From the NCBI GenBank assembly GCA_964535735.1, contig CAZHTM010000002.1:5082-69081 (forward strand): a DNA stretch of 64,000 nucleotides, in the 5' to 3' direction. The stretch's first letter is position 1, and every line of letters begins with the position of its first letter. The notes under the pieces were generated by a model that saw only the letters and a list, made by a program, of their open reading frames with translations, was not told the DNA's origin and did not search any database. This stretch comes from an uncultured bacterium. Its GTDB lineage: Bacteria > Fidelibacterota > Marinisomatia > Marinisomatales > J089. The position numbers and the translations under genes are program-made. This document shows, in pieces, positions 1,871 to 9,692 of this stretch.

Positions 1871-4047
1871 GAAGAGGAGGACTCCTCATTCTGTTCATAT
1901 GTTCACTGGCGACCAGTCAGGATGTAAAAGATTTGACCATGGATGATGTTTTTAAATCTTTCTTTAAAGATCATTCATTTTCAGCACGATGGCTTCCCGC
2001 AGAGGACCGTTTGGCATTCACCAAAACCGATTCAATCTATGGAAAGTCTATTTATTCTACGGATCCGGTCCAGGGCGATACGGCTCTCATAGTTCGTGGG
2101 AATGACCTTCGCCTGGGTGATTCTGTCCTGGCGTATTCCGGCTGGCGATTCAGCGCAAATCAACAGCGGGTATTGCTGGAAACCAACGTAAAACGAATCT
2201 GGCGACGGTCTCGGTCTATGGTAGCCTATGTGTACACTTTGAAAGATCAATCCCTCGTGGCACTGGGAAAAGGCGCCCGACTGCGGAATGTGAAATTCTC
2301 ACCTGACGGGAATCGCGTCGCTTATGTAATGGAAGATAATAATCTCTACGTATATGATTTGATCAGGCAGAAAGAACGGCAACTCACCAAGGATGGCTCC
2401 TCCAACATTCTCAATGGGCATTTCGGTTGGGTATATGAAGAAGAATTCGGCACTTACGACGGGTATCGCTGGTCGCCGGACGGTCGCTATATCGCCTTTT
2501 GGCGGGAGGATCAGACGGAAGTTCCCACGTTTCCGTTGGTGGATTATATGGACACTTATCCACATATTCAGACCATCCACTATCCCAAGGTAGGCGAACC
2601 CAATCCCGTGATGAAGATCGGCGTTGTGGACGTGCGGAAAGGTCGCCGGCGCTGGATCAAGATGGAGTCCAATACTGATACGTACTATCCACGCCTTTAT
2701 TGGATTCCAGGTAAAGGGGGACAACCCTCGGATCATGTGTTGATTTTCAAGTTGAACCGACTCCAAAATCATCTGGAACTCATCTCGGCTGATATTCGGA
2801 CCGGCAAGGTGGCCACCCTTTATGAAGAAAAGGATCCCGCCTGGATTGACATTACCGACGATCTTAGGTACCTCAAGGATGGAAGCTTTCTGTGGACCTC
2901 CGAAAAGTCCGGTTACCGGCACATTTACCGTATTTCCGCCGACGGATTGACCAGTAAGCCCTTAACCGGGGGAAACTGGGAAGTGACGCGCATTGTGGAT
3001 GTGGATGAAGAGGGGGGATGGGTTTATTTTTACAGCAAACGAGCTTCTGTCATCGGCCAGAACCTGTACCGGGTAACGTTGGACGGCAGTGAACTTCAGA
3101 ACCTGACACCGGAAGAAGGCTGGCATTCGGTTCAATTTGCGCCCCATCATCGACAATTTATTGACGCCTGGAGCACAGCTGCCATGCCCACAACACGGCG
3201 TTTGAAGGATGTGGGAGGCACTATCCTGAAAATATTCAGCGTGCCCGATACGTCGGATTTTCAAACCTATGGTTTTACCCATCCCCAATTCTTTCAGATT
3301 GCCACGACGGATGACAGCACGTTGTTGAATGTGAAAATGATGCTTCCACGGGATTTCAATCCGGAGCAAAAGTACCCCGTTCTCATGTATGGATACGGGG
3401 GGCCCGGAAGTCAGGTAGTGGCGAATCGCTGGGGAGGTCGCTTTAGCGCCTACTGGTATCAATACCTGGCCCAGCAGGGTTACATCCTGTTTTCCGTGGA
3501 TAACCGGGGAACGGGCGGCCGAGGGAAAGCCTTTAAAAACTTAGCTTATGGTGATCTGGGCAAATACGCCGCTGGCGATCACATGGAAGCGGTAAAATAC
3601 TTGCGGACTTTGCCTTATGTGGATCCGAAACGCATTGGCATTTGGGGTTGGAGTGGTGGAGGGTACCTCGCTAGCCTGTGCCTTACGAAAGGAGCGGATT
3701 ATTTCTCCATGGGCATTGCCGTAGCGCCGGTGATCGATTTACGCCTCTACGATACGATTTGGACGGAACGGTACATGGGAACGCTGGAAACCAATTCCGC
3801 CGGGTATGACAGCGCCAATGTGCTCACCTACGTGGATCGTTTAAAAGGGGATCTCCTCATCATTCACGGCACCGGCGATGACAATGTTCATTATCAGAAC
3901 ACGATTCAGATGGTCAACGCCTGTATCGCAAAGAAGAAACAAATCGATATAATGTTGTATCCCAATCGAAATCATGGGATTTATGGAGGGACGACCACTC
4001 GCCATTTGTACACCAAAATCACAAACTATATTTTGGAACACTTGTAG
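1864..4047 (+). CDS. S9B family dipeptidyl peptidase IV, exported
   Basis: Signal peptide, WVYEEE motif, GWSGGG nucleophile elbow, GDDNVH and RNHGI triad segments. Confidence 0.92.
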   Translation: MLRRGGLLILFICSLATSQDVKDLTMDDVFKSFFKDHSFSARWLPAEDRLAFTKTDSIYGKSIYSTDPVQGDTALIVRGNDLRLGDSVLAYSGWRFSANQQRVLLETNVKRIWRRSRSMVAYVYTLKDQSLVALGKGARLRNVKFSPDGNRVAYVMEDNNLYVYDLIRQKERQLTKDGSSNILNGHFGWVYEEEFGTYDGYRWSPDGRYIAFWREDQTEVPTFPLVDYMDTYPHIQTIHYPKVGEPNPVMKIGVVDVRKGRRRWIKMESNTDTYYPRLYWIPGKGGQPSDHVLIFKLNRLQNHLELISADIRTGKVATLYEEKDPAWIDITDDLRYLKDGSFLWTSEKSGYRHIYRISADGLTSKPLTGGNWEVTRIVDVDEEGGWVYFYSKRASVIGQNLYRVTLDGSELQNLTPEEGWHSVQFAPHHRQFIDAWSTAAMPTTRRLKDVGGTILKIFSVPDTSDFQTYGFTHPQFFQIATTDDSTLLNVKMMLPRDFNPEQKYPVLMYGYGGPGSQVVANRWGGRFSAYWYQYLAQQGYILFSVDNRGTGGRGKAFKNLAYGDLGKYAAGDHMEAVKYLRTLPYVDPKRIGIWGWSGGGYLASLCLTKGADYFSMGIAVAPVIDLRLYDTIWTERYMGTLETNSAGYDSANVLTYVDRLKGDLLIIHGTGDDNVHYQNTIQMVNACIAKKKQIDIMLYPNRNHGIYGGTTTRHLYTKITNYILEHL

Positions 4048-4103
4048 GCTTGTTTCCGGGGTAAGATTGTTCTAATTTTGCGCCGCTTTTTCAAAGCTTT
4101 TAT

Positions 4104-4176
<73 letters not shown>

Positions 4177-4187
4177 CCCCTCAATAA

Positions 4188-4223
4188 AACCCGGTTTCTC
4201 GACGAGAGATCGGGTTCTTTTTT
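4188..4223 (+). terminator. Intrinsic terminator after tRNA-Ala
   Basis: AACCCGGTTTCTC/GAGAGATCGGGTT stem with G-U pairs, followed by a T run. Confidence 0.75.
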
Positions 4224-4814: not shown

Positions 4815-5756
4815 ATGCAATATAATAAAATTCTATGGTGCTTAATAATCACTGGCGCATTTGGGCAAGTAAATATTGATGAGCGATTGACGTATTTTCC
4901 CCTTCAACTAGGTAATGTATGGCAGTATTATTATACACGAGATAATGATGGAGATGTATCTAATGGTTTACGAAAGTATGAAGTCATCGGAGATACGGTG
5001 TTGGAGGATAATTATACCTATCGTGTTTTGAGGGTTTCTACTATACTACCGAATTCGGAAACGACGGGTTTGGAGTTTTTAAAAATCGATTCTACCAATG
5101 CGGCCATTACTTCTCCGGACAGTATAAGAATTTATGATCTAGGTCTCGTCCTGAATGAATTTGATACAGTGTATTCCCAAATGGGACTTTGTCGGATCTA
5201 TTACCTGGGCTACGGTGAGAATGAAGCTTTAAGCGTTACATCAGATTCTATGATGAAGCATGAATATTCTTTATTGCTAGGTTCAGGGATAGGAGGGATT
5301 ATGCAATTTTACACATGGTGTTACCTTTTCCCTGATATTGGTATAACCTTTTGGGCAGACGTTAGAGAGTTTCCCAATCCGGGTGGAGAAGATATTTTTA
5401 TCTCTGAATCCTTGGCGATTACCGCCGCCGTCATCAATGGGGTTCAATATGGAGAATTTGTGACGCTTGAAACGCTCGTGGAAACTCATCCGACTGTGAT
5501 TTCTATATCCCAGAATTATCCCAATCCTTTTAACAGTCAAACACGAATACAATTTTCAATTTCAGAAAGAGAAAAAATTAAAATTTCCGTATCGTCTATT
5601 ACCGGTGAGCAGATCTCCCTTTTAGCTGACAGGGAATTCAATCCGGGTACACATCAGATAAACTGGGATGGAAGTCAAGTGTCAAGTGGAATATATCTCA
5701 TATACTTTGAATCCAATCAATTCACCCGGACCATAAAAGCTGTTTTAATGAAATAA
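4815..5756 (+). CDS. Secreted protein with a T9SS type A / FlgD-Ig-like C-terminal domain
   Basis: Signal peptide, YFPLQLGNVWQY, C-terminal SQNYPNPFNSQTRIQF...SSGIYL...KAVLMK. Confidence 0.85.
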   Translation: MQYNKILWCLIITGAFGQVNIDERLTYFPLQLGNVWQYYYTRDNDGDVSNGLRKYEVIGDTVLEDNYTYRVLRVSTILPNSETTGLEFLKIDSTNAAITSPDSIRIYDLGLVLNEFDTVYSQMGLCRIYYLGYGENEALSVTSDSMMKHEYSLLLGSGIGGIMQFYTWCYLFPDIGITFWADVREFPNPGGEDIFISESLAITAAVINGVQYGEFVTLETLVETHPTVISISQNYPNPFNSQTRIQFSISEREKIKISVSSITGEQISLLADREFNPGTHQINWDGSQVSSGIYLIYFESNQFTRTIKAVLMK

Positions 5757-5842: not shown

Positions 5843-6175
5843 TTGTCTCGCAATCGTAACAGTCGATTGGTGTATTCCACCGATCCGGACTTGCCGCTTA
5901 AGGAGGAGCAACCGGAGGAGAAATTCGTAGAGCCTGGTGCTCAGAACCTCCGCATCTGGCGGGAACGACGGGGTGGCGGAAAGATAGTCACAATCGTGAA
6001 AGGATTCCAGGGACCGGAAGCAGAACTGATGGACCTTGGAAAACGATTGAAACGCCATTGCGGAGCAGGAGGAACTGTCAAAGACGGCCAGATTCTTATT
6101 CAGGGTGATGTTCGGGATAAGGTGCTGACCCAGTTGCTGTCCTGGGGTTATGGCGCCAAAAAGAGCGGAGGGTAG
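5843..6175 (+). CDS. yciH: SUI1-family translation initiation factor (YciH)
   Basis: LVYSTD, RRGGGKIVTIVKGF, LKRHCGAGGTVKDGQILIQGD. Confidence 0.92.
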   Translation: MSRNRNSRLVYSTDPDLPLKEEQPEEKFVEPGAQNLRIWRERRGGGKIVTIVKGFQGPEAELMDLGKRLKRHCGAGGTVKDGQILIQGDVRDKVLTQLLSWGYGAKKSGG

Positions 6176-6178
6176 ACG

Positions 6179-7549
6179 GTGCTTTATCGCCTGATCAAGG
6201 CCCTGGCCATCCTGGCGGTGAAAACCTTTTTTAATCGCATTATCATCCGCCATCGTTCTCGCATCCCTGAATCAGGACCGGTCATCTTCGTGGCAAACCA
6301 TCCCAACACCATGATCGATCCGTTAGTGATTGGGTATGCCGTCAACCGAGATTTATCCTACCTTGCCAAAAGCACCCTTTTTAAACGTCCCATGAACCAC
6401 TGGATCCTGACCAAACTTCGCCTGGTACCCGTGTTTCGTAAAATGGACAACCCCAACGAAACGGCGAAAAATGAACGGACCTTTGAGAAATGTTATCAAA
6501 TTCTGGAAAAAGGAGATGCGTTTCTCATTTTTCCAGAAGGTGTCTCCACCGGAGAACAGACGATCAACAAAATTAAGACCGGAGCCGCCCGGATCGGATT
6601 CGGCGCAGAACAACGCAATGACTTTAAGCTAGGCGTTCAGATTGTTCCCGTGGGCATCAGTTATTCCGATATCACCAAATTTCGCAGCGATGTGACCATA
6701 CGGTTCGGACGACCGATTGAGCTCAGCGAGTATCGGGAACTTTATCAGCAAGATGAGGTGGAGGCGGTACGGACGGTCACTGGAATCATCGATGAAGCCC
6801 TGCATAAACTCACTTTGACATTAGAGCATCTGGAGATCGAAAGCATCGTGGAATCCATCAAGAAAATTTACCAGCAGGAATTGATGGTGGAGTTGGGTAA
6901 AGTCAAAGGGCGGGGCGTTTCTGATTTTTCCATCACCAAGGGTCTTATCAATGCCGTGGAGTGGTTTTATCAGAACTATCCTGAAAAGGTGTTAACCTTT
7001 AAAGAGGACTTGGATCATTATTTACGAAATTTGAATCGACTCCATGTAAAAGATGAATTTTTACAACCCCGGGGAAATCCGTCACCGCTGGCCCACCGCA
7101 TTCGAATGGCCTTGGTTCTCTTGGCGGGCTTCCCGATTTTTGTGTTCGGACTGATCAACAATTACATTCCACATAAAATCCCACGGTGGTACACCCAGAC
7201 CAAGGGAGTGGAAAAATCCATGTATGCCACCACCAAGATGGTGATCGGAATCGGCAGTTTTCTCCTGTATTATGCCCTGATTTTAACCGTGGTTTCGTTC
7301 CTGTCCCCGTCCTGGGTGTATACCGTCATCTATGCTATTGCGATACCCCCCAGCGGCAATTACGTTCTGCGTTACATCCGTTTAGTAGACACTTATCGTC
7401 AGCATCTTACGTTTTTATCCATTTTCTACCGGAAAAAATATTTGTTGTTCAAATTGATCGAGGAACGAAATCGTCTGATTTCTGATCTGAATAAATACAA
7501 GGAAGATTATTATTCAAAAACCGGCTTTGTCCCGGGAACTTCATCCTGA
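6179..7549 (+). CDS. PlsC-family lysophospholipid acyltransferase with C-terminal membrane domain
   Basis: NHPNTMID (HX4D), FPEG motif, C-terminal TM helices. Confidence 0.85.
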   Translation: MLYRLIKALAILAVKTFFNRIIIRHRSRIPESGPVIFVANHPNTMIDPLVIGYAVNRDLSYLAKSTLFKRPMNHWILTKLRLVPVFRKMDNPNETAKNERTFEKCYQILEKGDAFLIFPEGVSTGEQTINKIKTGAARIGFGAEQRNDFKLGVQIVPVGISYSDITKFRSDVTIRFGRPIELSEYRELYQQDEVEAVRTVTGIIDEALHKLTLTLEHLEIESIVESIKKIYQQELMVELGKVKGRGVSDFSITKGLINAVEWFYQNYPEKVLTFKEDLDHYLRNLNRLHVKDEFLQPRGNPSPLAHRIRMALVLLAGFPIFVFGLINNYIPHKIPRWYTQTKGVEKSMYATTKMVIGIGSFLLYYALILTVVSFLSPSWVYTVIYAIAIPPSGNYVLRYIRLVDTYRQHLTFLSIFYRKKYLLFKLIEERNRLISDLNKYKEDYYSKTGFVPGTSS

Positions 7550-7594: not shown

Positions 7595-8782
7595 ATGTTG
7601 AAACAAAAATCCATATTACTCATCGGAATTCTAGCCGTTATTGCCGGGTGTTCCAGTAAAGAAGTCAAAGAGGGTAAGCTCACTTTCGTCACAACAGCCA
7701 ATGTAAGGGCTCAATTTGATCCCTGTGGGTGAAAGGCCAATCCCCTGGGCGGTCTGCCCAGACGCGCAACCTACCTCAAAGAGCTGAAAGACAAAGGACT
7801 AACCCCCATTCTTCTGGATGCGGGTGACGTATTTTTCGAGAACTCCGGATTACCACAATACAAGGTAACCGCTGCCAAATACAAAGCAAAAAAAATGCTG
7901 GAGGGTTACCAGAAACTTGGATACCGAGCCATCAATATCGGTCAATACGATTTTGCTGCCGGCCCGGATTTCCTAAAATCCCTGGCCGATTCCGCGTCCA
8001 TTCCTTTTTTATCCGCCAATCTCGTGGATGAAACTTCCGGGGAACCAGTATTTAAACCATATATCATTATTGAAGAAGGCGGATTCAGGATAGGCGTGAT
8101 CGGTCTCATCAGCAGATTACCGGCCAATTATCCCGGTTTAAGGCTTAAAGATATGATACTTACGGGAAAGGAATTAATCGAATCACTGAAGCCGAAAACT
8201 GATTTAATTGTCGTCTTGGCCAACGTGGATAGTCGCAAGAATCGCGACATTCAAGACGCCTTTCCCGATGCCAAGTATATATTTGTCAGCCGCGGAAGCC
8301 TTCGGACTCAACCAGGTCAAAAACAGCCGGAGGGCGGACCTTACCTGTATTCCAGTAGCATTCAGGGGAAATACGTCAGCGAGGTTCAGCTCGTTATAGC
8401 CAATCTGGATTCCCCTATCGTGGATGTTTCTCACTATAATGCCACCATTAAGAATGTGAAAGCACGGTTTGAAAACCTGAAGAAAAAAGACCCCAATCGT
8501 CCACTGGAAGAAGTCTATGCCAATCAGCCCAATGTGTTGCGATTAATTAAAAACTATCGGCAACAGTTAGAGATCGCTGAGGCCGGCTTAAAACACGCCG
8601 TGAATCGTTCAGAATTCAAACTTGTGCCTTTAAACCGGAAAATCAAAGATGATCCGGATATGTTGGTGTTTATTGACGATGTTTTGGCAAAAGCGGATAG
8701 CCTTCAAGGAAAACCACCCGTAACCATGTCTACCAAAACCCGTTCACCCAAACCCCAAAAACGTTCTCTTAAGGTTCAGTGA
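7595..8782 (+). CDS. UshA-like (metallophosphoesterase-fold) lipoprotein selenoprotein, Sec at codon 46
   Basis: ATG 7595 is in frame with the listed 7895 ORF; lipobox IAGC; DPCG-TGA(7730)-KANPLGGLPRRATYLKEL...LDAGD continues homology across the TGA; SECIS present. Confidence 0.88.
7730..7761 (+). promoter_or_regulatory. Bacterial SECIS element
   Basis: CTGGGC-GGTCT-GCCCAG hairpin at 7745-7761; the apical loop starts 18 nt after the UGA, as in the E. coli fdhF SECIS (GGUCU). Confidence 0.85.
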
Positions 8783-9264
8783 AAACCAGGGGTTTAGTAG
8801 CGGCTATAATCTATGGCGTGTTGGGGTGTGCGGTTGGTCTACTATTTAATAGCGTAAGGTCGGATGGTATACCCTTAGTGGCGGAATCCCTGCCGACCAT
8901 AGCCGATTCCACCGTATCTATGAATCCCGACAGTTTGTCTGGAATTCACGTTATTAATCTCCAACAAGCGAAATTTTACTATGATAAGGGGATTCCTTTT
9001 ATCGACGCCCGGGAAGAGGAAGAGTACCGGGAAGGTCACATCGTCGGAGCGTTTCCCTTTCTCAATTTTATGGAATTGGTGTTCAATTTGGATACCCTTC
9101 AAACCCGAGAGGACCTGATTATCACTTACTGCAGTGATGCGGAGTGTGGCCTGAGTAAAAACCTGGCTTACGACCTCCAGGCCTCCGGATTTACTCACAT
9201 CCTAGTATTCGAAGGAGGGTGGAACGATTGGGTAGCAGCGGGATATCCCGTGGAGTCCGAATGA
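8779..9264 (+). CDS. Membrane-anchored rhodanese-like domain protein
   Basis: N-terminal TM, FIDAREEEEYREGHIVGA, YCSDAEC active loop, FEGGWNDW. Confidence 0.88.
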   Translation: MKTRGLVAAIIYGVLGCAVGLLFNSVRSDGIPLVAESLPTIADSTVSMNPDSLSGIHVINLQQAKFYYDKGIPFIDAREEEEYREGHIVGAFPFLNFMELVFNLDTLQTREDLIITYCSDAECGLSKNLAYDLQASGFTHILVFEGGWNDWVAAGYPVESE

Positions 9265-9692
9265 AAACGGGAACTTACGTAGTCCTTTTTGCCCGAATCG
9301 TCGTGGGCGCTGTGTTGATTTATGCCAGCATTGATAAAATCACCGATCCGCTGGAATTCTCCAAGGCGATTACCAATTACCATATGCTGCCCTGGGGATT
9401 GGAAAATCTGTTAGCCATCACGCTGCCATGGATTGAATTATTTGTGGGAGTTGGCCTTTTAGCGGGAATCTATTTGGATGGCGCGGCCTTGGTGGCTCAA
9501 TCCTTGATGCTTGTGTTTATTCTAGCGATCGGTTCCGCCATTTTACGGGGAATAGACATTGAGTGCGGCTGTGGATTAAAAGACGGCGAAATGGTGGGCG
9601 TACCCAAAATTCTTGAAGATTTGGTGTATTACGGGCTTGCGCTATTGATCTATTTTCGTCGAGAACGCGGCTTCCTGGAACTTCTTAAATAA
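9261..9692 (+). CDS. MauE/DoxX-family redox-associated membrane protein
   Basis: ARIVVG..LIYASIDKI.DP, LPWIEL, RGIDIECGC; ATG 9261 overlaps the rhodanese stop (ATGA). Confidence 0.85.
   Translation: MKTGTYVVLFARIVVGAVLIYASIDKITDPLEFSKAITNYHMLPWGLENLLAITLPWIELFVGVGLLAGIYLDGAALVAQSLMLVFILAIGSAILRGIDIECGCGLKDGEMVGVPKILEDLVYYGLALLIYFRRERGFLELLK

Follow-up and report, generated by a model that had tools for sequence, protein, structure and literature searches.

Organization of the three-gene locus

We analyzed positions 7595 to 9692 of a 64,000-nucleotide stretch of DNA, referred to here as the window, from an uncultured bacterium of the Fidelibacterota (order Marinisomatales; contig CAZHTM010000002.1). 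The region consists of three open reading frames (ORFs) on the same (+) strand, namely, ORF1 (7595 to 8782; ATG start, TGA stop at 8780 to 8782, 395 codons including Sec46), which encodes a UshA-like selenoprotein and lipoprotein with a 5'-nucleotidase fold; ORF2 (8779 to 9264; GTG start, 161 amino acids), which encodes a membrane-anchored rhodanese-fold protein with a C-x4-C loop; and ORF3 (9261 to 9692; ATG start, 143 amino acids), which encodes a membrane protein of the MauE/DoxX family with four transmembrane (TM) regions. ORF2 matched PF00581 with 52 bits (gathering threshold, 22.2), and ORF3 matched PF07291 with 93.7 bits (gathering threshold, 27) and PF07681 with 36.6 bits.

An earlier note on this DNA had reported that the three genes overlap at their stop and start codons and that their products carry reactive Cys or Sec motifs. 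Both overlaps are present in the sequence: GTGA (8779 to 8782) joins the ORF1 stop to the GTG start of ORF2, and ATGA (9261 to 9264) joins the ORF2 stop to the ATG start of ORF3. The former is also a 4-nucleotide overlap in the closest relative (L036), and overlaps recur among 66 loci that contain all three genes (trio loci). Of these 66 loci, 18 have a spacing of -4 and 11 a spacing of -1 between the selenoprotein and rhodanese genes, and the rhodanese and MauE genes overlap by 4 nucleotides in 41 and by 8 nucleotides in 10. The motifs C-G-U (7724 to 7732), Y-C-S-D-A-E-C (9127 to 9147), and E-C-G-C (9561 to 9572) are equally in place. The overlaps suggest that translation of the trio is coupled. 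Signal peptide and TM features suggest that all three products are located in the envelope, which is supported by the topology of natural fusions and by the published TOPCONS topology of MauE.

The in-frame TGA of ORF1 as a selenocysteine codon

The sole in-frame TGA of ORF1 is codon 46 (7730 to 7732), which closes the redox motif Cys44-Gly45-Sec46 (TGT GGG TGA, 7724 to 7732). By every sequence-level test, this TGA is predicted to encode selenocysteine (Sec). (i) A hairpin that fits a selenocysteine insertion sequence (SECIS) lies downstream at 7745 to 7761 of the same strand, with the stem CUGGGC/GCCCAG and the loop GGUCU at +22 to +26 from the U of UGA; both this loop sequence and this distance are those of the Escherichia coli fdhF SECIS. 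In the 54 nucleotides 3' of the TGA in 112 unique relatives, a 6-bp stem (+16 to +21 with +27 to +32) was found, the loop is GGUCU in 106 sequences, the synonymous third positions within the element are fixed (GGC GGU CUG), and pair 18-30 covaries (G-C 48, A-U 22, U-A 11, G-U 11, and C-G 3). In 30 sequences picked from this list, with a shifted-register variant left out, 97.2% of the cells were paired compared to 88.7% in shuffles, with 0 of 500 shuffles reaching the observed value, and slid registers of the alignment gave pairing of only 26 to 53%. Because the hairpin is short, its support comes from these comparative data: the fold of 76 nucleotides around the TGA is unremarkable (z-score, 0.95), and an Rfam gathering scan of the window returned only tRNAs and no SECIS family. 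When the window was scanned for other TGA codons followed by a GGUC-loop hairpin, that of ORF1 was the sole one in a long frame. (ii) The TGA is retained in L001 and L002, in at least 119 loci retrieved from species-representative genomes with the DNA pattern P-C-G-TGA-K-x-N-P-x-G-G, and in nine independently found loci. (iii) The protein is conserved on both sides of the TGA, where it is homologous to motifs I and II of the 5'-nucleotidases/UshA. (iv) Cys occupies the Sec site (CGC) in the homologues P0070 (VCGCK), P0072 (SCGCA), and P0075 (PCGCR).

Database entries of the UshA-like CGU family are systematically truncated or mistranslated. The public gene calls of relatives mostly start past the TGA (~300 amino acids), and others give Trp at this position (DPCGWK). 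The affected entries are P0006, P0009, P0020, P0024, P0031, P0034, P0047, and P0001 to P0005; the W of P0024 is a gene-calling artifact, since the matching loci L094 and L076 have TGA there.

Family, fold, and metal site of ORF1

Within the UshA-like CxU family, ORF1 falls into a subfamily that has no cytochrome domain and whose metal site is degenerate. This family corresponds to the "COG0737 UshA-like, CxU" group of the ocean-sampling study of Zhang and Gladyshev (2008), in which 76 Sec sequences and 92 Cys homologues were reported (PMC2398784). Since then it has ranked among the more abundant marine selenoprotein families, and a review of 2026 still lists it without a function. The best NCBIfam match of ORF1 is NF041198 (UshA_like_PCGU), with which it shares the N-terminal 5'-nucleotidase-like domain, the P-C-G-U-K-x-N-P-L-G-G block, and Sec/Cys pairs at the same site; past motif I, ORF1 reads D-P-C-G-U-K-A-N-P-L-G-G. 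Its score of 209.3 bits, over model positions 5 to 395 of 519, lies below the cut-off of 275. This cut-off is passed by L117, a Sec form, and by the Cys forms P0070 and P0072 (280 to 290 bits), in all of which a multihaem cytochrome c domain is present at the C terminus. ORF1 and its Marinimicrobia relatives (213 to 233 bits) lack this domain, and the subfamily of ORF1 is encoded instead with the rhodanese and MauE. No conserved redox neighbor was found in the neighborhoods of the cytochrome-fused Cys forms P0072 and P0075.

The lipoprotein signal peptide of ORF1 (7595 to 7651) ends in the lipobox LAVIAG-C19 (C19 at 7649 to 7651), with a weak match to LPAM_1 (E value, 0.029). A strict lipobox is present in 52 of 101 relatives, and the 12 listed examples that do not match have W-S-C, W-G-C, I-G-C, or A-C past the hydrophobic stretch.

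Structural information was obtained from a model of the homologue P0006, which is 42% identical to ORF1 and has W at the Sec position. The top Foldseek matches of this model (predicted local distance difference test [pLDDT], 87; predicted template modeling score [pTM], 0.84) were E. coli UshA and human CD73 (E value of ~1e-21, TM-score of ~0.6). Profile matches of the ORF1 family included UshA (E value, 2e-28) and SoxB (2e-10 for the PDB entry and 5.6e-13 for TIGR04486). The N-terminal domain fold is thus that of UshA, CD73, and SoxB, whereas a helical region takes the place of their C-terminal substrate-binding domain. PF00149 and PF02872 gave no match to ORF1. In the profile alignment to UshA, D-P-C-G-U is a five-residue insertion directly past metallophosphatase motif I. 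The metal and catalytic positions of UshA are altered in the trio clade (D41 to N/S, H43 to R/H, N116 to variable residues, H117 to Y/F, H217 to N, and H252 to R/G), and of the metal-binding motifs DxH, GD, GNH(E/D), H, and GH, the sole position kept is the bridging Asp D78 of GD (D or E in 63/63); family-specific Asn residues lie near the C-G-U loop. The loss of metal ligands and the insertion therefore describe a phosphoesterase scaffold without a dinuclear site and with a Cys-Gly-Sec center beside it. The replaced ligands, the lack of a PF00149 match, the Cys homologues, and the cytochrome fusions all point to the selenoprotein as a redox protein and not a phosphatase.

The retained Asp and the Asn residues can also be read as signs of thiophilic-metal handling, in which C-G-U, C-x4-C, and C-G-C would bind Cu, Hg, Cd, or Zn and pass it on within the envelope or the UshA site would hold a Sec-ligated metal. 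C-x-C and acidic Cys loops are common as metal sites, and ORF3 weakly matches the HvfX Cu-RiPP maturation family. However, the latter match is not significant (E value, 0.052), the C-G-C loop of MauE acts in disulfide formation, the cytochrome-fused homologues suggest electron transfer, and neither metal transporters nor metal regulators were found beside the trio. We consider metal handling very unlikely and prefer a thiol-redox function.

The UshA genes L003 to L008 (Bacteroidales, Brachyspira, and Rhizobium) are canonical phosphoesterases and were set aside as irrelevant. A paralogue with 223 member sequences (P0066/P0067; L207, 4838 to 5905) lacks both Cys and Sec in the motif (K-P-Y-K-I-R-L-D-S-L-G-G), and no rhodanese or MauE was found within 6.6 kb of neighborhood of P0067.

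Conservation of the trio

Close Sec-containing relatives were taken as those that score 200 bits or more against the window protein, and 53 of them came with 1.1 kb or more of DNA past the selenoprotein gene. In 47 of these 53, the genes for the rhodanese and MauE lie directly downstream on the same strand, and these relatives are only 34 to 75% identical to the window protein. In nine further FCB/Marinimicrobia loci, found from the rhodanese side, the order is rhodanese-MauE-selenoprotein, and the TGA is kept (E-P-C-G-TGA-P-K-N-P-L-G-G and similar). The linkage of the trio survives rearrangement and therefore argues for function; the neighborhood conservation that had been named as a check on the first interpretation is borne out by these loci. 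Both Cys residues of the rhodanese, C118 and C123, are invariant in all 66 trio loci, as are C102 and C104 of MauE in all 64 complete sequences. This conservation of motifs and junctions is more than chance.

A sub-clade of six selenoproteins (L017, L029, L042, L076, L094, and L095) has the C terminus ..TCEELDKK..IKT; in place of the pair, a cysteine-synthase-like gene in convergent orientation comes next. The metagenome-assembled genome SAT170 contains both this pair-less form (L017) and a form that adjoins a rhodanese (L079), the DNA of which ends before any MauE. Such a sub-clade, together with the occurrence of the pair alone in Ignavibacteria and other phyla, might be explained by a coincidental neighborhood of a housekeeping rhodanese-MauE pair and a functionally unconnected selenoprotein gene. 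We find this hardly credible in view of the linkage in 47 of 53 relatives at such divergence, the retention of all three genes in a second order, the overlap of stop and start codons, and the parallel occurrence of the same module beside C-G-C and U-G-C proteins of the DUF1573 family.

The rhodanese-MauE module in other phyla

The motif Y-C-x4-C is found in 123 of the 150 best representatives of ORF2 at 50% identity. In 74 of 77 loci retrieved with the rhodanese, MauE adjoins it, nearly always directly downstream. These loci span Ignavibacteria, Zixibacteria, Eisenbacteria, Verrucomicrobiota, Desulfobacterales, Armatimonadota, Bacteroidota, and Marinimicrobia, and 60 of the rhodanese-seeded loci have no UshA-like gene within 4 kb. 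Among 80 loci of Thermodesulfobacteriota retrieved with MauE, a C-x4-C rhodanese is directly upstream in 54. Natural fusions of both orders exist: in P0213 and P0225, two or three rhodanese domains of the C-x4-C type are joined to a MauE domain in which C-G-C is retained, and in L194 MauE is followed by the TM anchor and the domain of the rhodanese. By the TM counts of P0213 and L194, with an extra or a retained TM, the C-G-C loop lies on the outer side of the membrane together with the rhodanese domains. Judged from these loci, the pair of C-x4-C rhodanese and MauE is an independent module, to which the selenoprotein is a lineage-specific addition. In L206 (1680 to 3046; Desulfobacterales), two thioredoxin-domain genes lie ~0.8 kb upstream of the pair, and these are the sole thioredoxin-fold neighbors of the module among the neighbors scanned against Pfam.

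A second type of protein recurs beside this module. A DUF1573 protein with a C-G-C-T motif adjoins it in Verrucomicrobiota, Zixibacteria, and a deltaproteobacterium, and a DUF1573 gene is directly downstream of MauE in 25 of the 80 Thermodesulfobacteriota loci. We read 20 such neighbors in Desulfobacterales, and 17 of them contain an in-frame TGA that would give S-G-U-G-C-T-A-A. The context is K-S-G-TGA-G-C-T-A-A, at ~3400 to 4200 in each locus (L216, L217, L218, L221, L222, L225, L226, L230, L232, L234, L251, L259, L261, L262, L264, L272, and L285). The other three have C-G-C (L268 and L274 of Desulfatibacillum sp., the latter uncultured, and L282). DUF1573 (PF07610) has been listed as the orphan selenoprotein family "OS_HP2" with a UGC motif (PMC2398784, PMC13188914). 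It resembles the family of ORF1 in being an orphan with a [C/U]-G-C motif that adjoins MauE, with or without the rhodanese, but it has an unrelated Ig-like fold, occurs in other phyla, and is not encoded in the window. Two unrelated folds with [Cys/Sec]-Gly-[Cys/Sec] thus recur beside a Cys-Gly-Cys membrane protein.

The rhodanese-fold protein ORF2

ORF2 begins with a TM anchor (residues 5 to 24, LVAAIIYGVLGCAVGLLFNS; 8791 to 8850), in which N24 is conserved in 97%, and has the active-site loop C118-S-D-A-E-C123 (9130 to 9147). In alignments with rhodaneses of solved structure, C118 falls on the catalytic Cys. Compared to theirs, the loop of ORF2 has two extra residues, is rich in Asp/Glu in the relatives, lacks the usual basic residues, and has a second invariant Cys; the six-residue basic active-site loop of rhodanese sulfurtransferases is thus not found in ORF2. 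A weak match was obtained to the rhodanese domain of TsoB (NF045694; 26.5 bits, E value of 1.6e-6). Like ORF2, TsoB (U-x4-U) has a rhodanese domain in which a redox pair with four-residue spacing is coupled to a membrane thiol-disulfide protein, but it has Sec where ORF2 has Cys, and its membrane part is DsbD-like (reductive, with electrons from cytoplasmic thioredoxin) and not MauE. ORF2 also matches NF041203 ("rhodanese_LYCAU"; E value, 1.1e-10), a rhodanese-related selenoprotein family with a C-x-U active site, which shows that the active-site loop of related rhodanese families can contain Sec.

The earlier note had interpreted the trio as an extracytoplasmic sulfur/selenium relay or a thiol-redox module. 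In the former case, a persulfide or perselenide on the catalytic Cys of the rhodanese would exchange with the C-G-U protein, with MauE as an accessory redox partner. The rhodanese fold and the canonical position of C118 are consistent with such trafficking, as are the distant relationship of the selenoprotein fold to the thiosulfohydrolase SoxB and the hydrothermal vent or microbial mat source. A precedent may be the DoxX-SseA-SodA membrane-associated oxidoreductase complex of Mycobacterium tuberculosis, reportedly described by Nambi et al. in 2015, in which a DoxX-superfamily membrane protein and a rhodanese-family protein are said to act in thiol redox homeostasis, as proposed for the trio. 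Unlike the proteins of the trio, however, SseA is reportedly a cytoplasmic two-domain protein with a canonical loop, DoxX is not of the C-G-C MauE type, and no selenoprotein is involved. Trafficking is further opposed by the lengthened loop, in which Asp/Glu replace the basic residues that hold the persulfide, and by the second invariant Cys, which would resolve any persulfide. The 60 pair loci of other phyla lack a UshA-like gene within 4 kb, the C-G-C loop of MauE works in disulfide formation, and sox, dsr, and sel genes were not found in the neighborhood of the trio. We regard sulfur or selenium trafficking as quite unlikely. Of the two readings proposed earlier, the sulfur/selenium relay is disfavored by the altered loop and by the pair without selenoprotein in many phyla, and the thiol-redox module is supported in outline by the invariant motifs, the linkage in two gene orders, the fusions, and the published work on MauE.

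ORF3 and the published MauE pathway

The active site of ORF3 is C102-G103-C104 (9564 to 9572), in the loop between TM3 and TM4. Two further residues correspond to those proposed at the quinone head group, namely, Lys26 at the end of TM1 (9336 to 9338; 66/66) and Glu59 in TM2 (9435 to 9437; 65/66). The sole Cys residues of the protein are those of the C-G-C loop, and there is no Cys pair facing the cytoplasm or embedded in the membrane. From the positive-inside rule, the fusions, and the published topology, we infer that the loop faces the periplasm. When ORF3 was used to search for homologous proteins, the matches were confined to close relatives from Marinimicrobia, and none was an informative fusion.

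A preprint of 2026 reports that two MauE proteins (H1XRV2 and B8FLW7) replace DsbB in E. coli, that either Cys of the CGC loop is needed for this replacement according to mutagenesis, and that the loop is periplasmic by TOPCONS; quinone binding was predicted by docking, which placed ubiquinone between the helices near the conserved Lys and Glu (bioRxiv 10.64898/2026.03.05.709764). ORF3 shares with the MauE pathway (Gonzalez et al.; originally MauE/MauD of the methylamine dehydrogenase cluster) the PF07291 domain, the four TM regions, the C-G-C loop, the Lys, and the Glu. In contrast to MauE/MauD, the trio is without mau genes (mauA, mauB, and mauD are not among its neighbors), the partner gene encodes a rhodanese fold with C-x4-C and not a thioredoxin-fold MauD/DsbA, and a selenoprotein is attached. 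The nearest proxy to the two proteins tested, the Desulfatibacillum sp. locus L274, has MauE followed by the DUF1573 CGC gene and no rhodanese.

These properties bear on the possibility that the trio works in the opposite direction, with MauE and the rhodanese supplying electrons to re-reduce a selenylsulfide. The UshA-like protein would then be a Sec-nucleophile reductase or peroxidase acting on peroxide, disulfides, polysulfides, or oxyanions (e.g., arsenate or selenite), in each case an oxidized substrate. Characterized selenoenzymes mostly use Sec as an attacking nucleophile with a thiol reductant, and phosphatase scaffolds have been recruited before for oxyanion reduction (ArsC and Acr2). 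In addition, the match of ORF2 to TsoB links it to a fusion of a rhodanese with a DsbD-like, and thus reductive, transporter, and the strongly acidic C-x4-C loop is expected to stabilize a disulfide and lower the potential. A study prior to the preprint proposed MauE as a reductase (cited in bioRxiv 10.64898/2026.03.05.709764). However, the Cys residues of MauE lie only in the periplasmic loop, with no pair to import electrons, the complementation of dsbB by MauE is an oxidative function, and quinols are established to be poor disulfide reductants on thermodynamic grounds. We judge the reductive direction to be unlikely and favor an oxidative relay.

A proposed periplasmic thiol/selenol-disulfide relay around MauE

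Our preferred interpretation, which we hold with moderate confidence, is that the trio forms a periplasm-facing thiol/selenol-disulfide relay around MauE. Electrons would flow from the selenoprotein (C44/U46) to the rhodanese (C118/C123), to MauE (C102/C104), and to quinone. MauE, with its C-G-C loop at the outer face, would be a DsbB-like and probably quinone-linked generator of disulfide bonds, and the rhodanese-fold protein, tethered in the same membrane, would be its direct partner. C118 and C123, in what was formerly a sulfurtransferase loop, may act as a disulfide carrier, so that the role of DsbA or MauD would be played by a non-thioredoxin fold. This carrier would exchange with the Cys44-Gly-Sec46 center of the lipoprotein, and the relay would hold the selenoprotein as a reactive selenylsulfide able to oxidize a substrate in the periplasm, which would be either the thiols of exported proteins or a small compound of reduced sulfur. 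Three parts of this scheme are inferred, namely, that the rhodanese is the partner of MauE, that electrons flow in this direction, and that there is a further substrate of the kind named. The cytochrome-fused relatives fit an oxidative relay because the same catalytic domain would have a different electron outlet.

The logic proposed is that of DsbB-DsbA and of VKOR-thioredoxin, in which the oxidizing equivalents of quinone reach a periplasmic carrier and its clients via a small helical membrane protein. Fusions of the membrane part with the carrier exist both in DsbB-DsbA/VKOR-type systems and in rhodanese-MauE. Nevertheless, the trio has no sequence relationship to DsbB or VKOR, MauE has one C-x-C and not two Cys pairs, the client contains Sec, and the carrier, compared to DsbA, is a membrane-anchored rhodanese fold with C-x4-C.

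Several observations weigh against this relay. (i) The six close selenoprotein relatives of the sub-clade described above have no adjoining rhodanese-MauE pair, and neither have 11 distant Sec forms (Myxococcota, KSB1, and others) in the available DNA; for two more distant Sec forms (L028 and L033), almost no upstream DNA is available. (ii) The MauE of the window is without the usual Phe past C-x-C and reads C-G-C-G-L; this residue is G, S, T, or A in the trio clade, and non-Marinimicrobia relatives mostly have CGCF. (iii) The Sec machinery, including tRNA-Sec, was not seen in the 64-kb window. (iv) Persulfide chemistry is possible in ORF2 because the canonical catalytic Cys is kept. (v) The direction of electron flow is borrowed from the two heterologous MauE proteins of the preprint, and the common need of Sec nucleophiles for re-reduction favors the opposite direction, as does the earlier proposal of MauE as a reductase. 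(vi) The preprint expects a thioredoxin-fold partner of MauE, and rhodanese and selenoproteins are absent from its text (bioRxiv 10.64898/2026.03.05.709764).

A broader proposal, which we advance only tentatively, is that bacteria have a third major pathway of disulfide formation, in which the native partners of MauE are C-x4-C proteins with a rhodanese and not a thioredoxin fold and in which [Cys/Sec]-Gly-[Cys/Sec] proteins (including UshA-like CGU and DUF1573 UGC) are the dedicated terminal components. In that case, the Marinimicrobia trio would act in the periplasm as an oxidase that depends on selenium.

Genomic surroundings and occurrence

The trio is flanked by housekeeping genes (SUI1, an acyltransferase, CdsA, and a MutL-like protein), and a scan of the region for promoter- and terminator-like sites found none that exceeded shuffle expectation. 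The gene just 5' of that for the selenoprotein was read in seven Marinimicrobia loci (L001, 4641 to 4964; L002, 2811 to 3131; L017; L026; L029; L042; and L094), and in every one it encodes a SUI1/YciH-type translation factor. In the window, this gene is at 5843 to 6175, and the acyltransferase gene (6179 to 7549) sits between it and the selenoprotein gene. The adjacency may reflect either a link to Sec decoding or plain synteny. Further upstream, positions 4815 to 5756 encode a protein with a type IX secretion system C-terminal sorting domain (Por_Secre_tail), which agrees with the window coming from the FCB group (Marinimicrobia/Fidelibacterota-like).

The trio sequence is present in microbial-mat and hydrothermal-vent metagenomes. 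In a small mat metatranscriptome, one contig of 186 nucleotides maps to 8308 to 8493, in ORF1 downstream of the TGA, a weak indication that the gene is transcribed. In run X3, a contig from a related strain of the same mat study lacks one base at window position 8757, where the 3' tail of ORF1 is A/C-rich. Such a loss would shift the last codons of ORF1 and the overlap with ORF2, and it may be an assembly error.

Significance for envelope redox chemistry

The family of each component is already known, the UshA-like CxU family since 2008. Their combination, in which a putative MauE partner of rhodanese fold occurs with a UshA-like protein that contains Sec and DUF1573 UGC proteins form a parallel elsewhere, was not found in the searchable literature: our searches returned no relevant report linking MauE with a rhodanese, MauE with a selenoprotein, or DoxX with a rhodanese and SseA. 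The locus, along with ~300 related loci, ties the orphan UshA-like CxU family to MauE, which was shown to be DsbB-like only in 2026. These loci nominate the rhodanese-fold C-x4-C protein as a partner of MauE, and the C-G-U and U-G-C selenoproteins as attached components. The questions of what MauE passes its disulfide to and what these selenoproteins do thereby become testable by standard genetics and thiol trapping. The answers bear on envelope redox chemistry and on the spending of selenium in uncultured marine and sediment Marinimicrobia and Desulfobacterales. If the proposal holds, the Marinimicrobia oxidase would take electrons from the thiols of proteins or from a reduced sulfur compound and pass them to the quinone pool, and the trio would do the job that its cytochrome-fused relatives do via haems.

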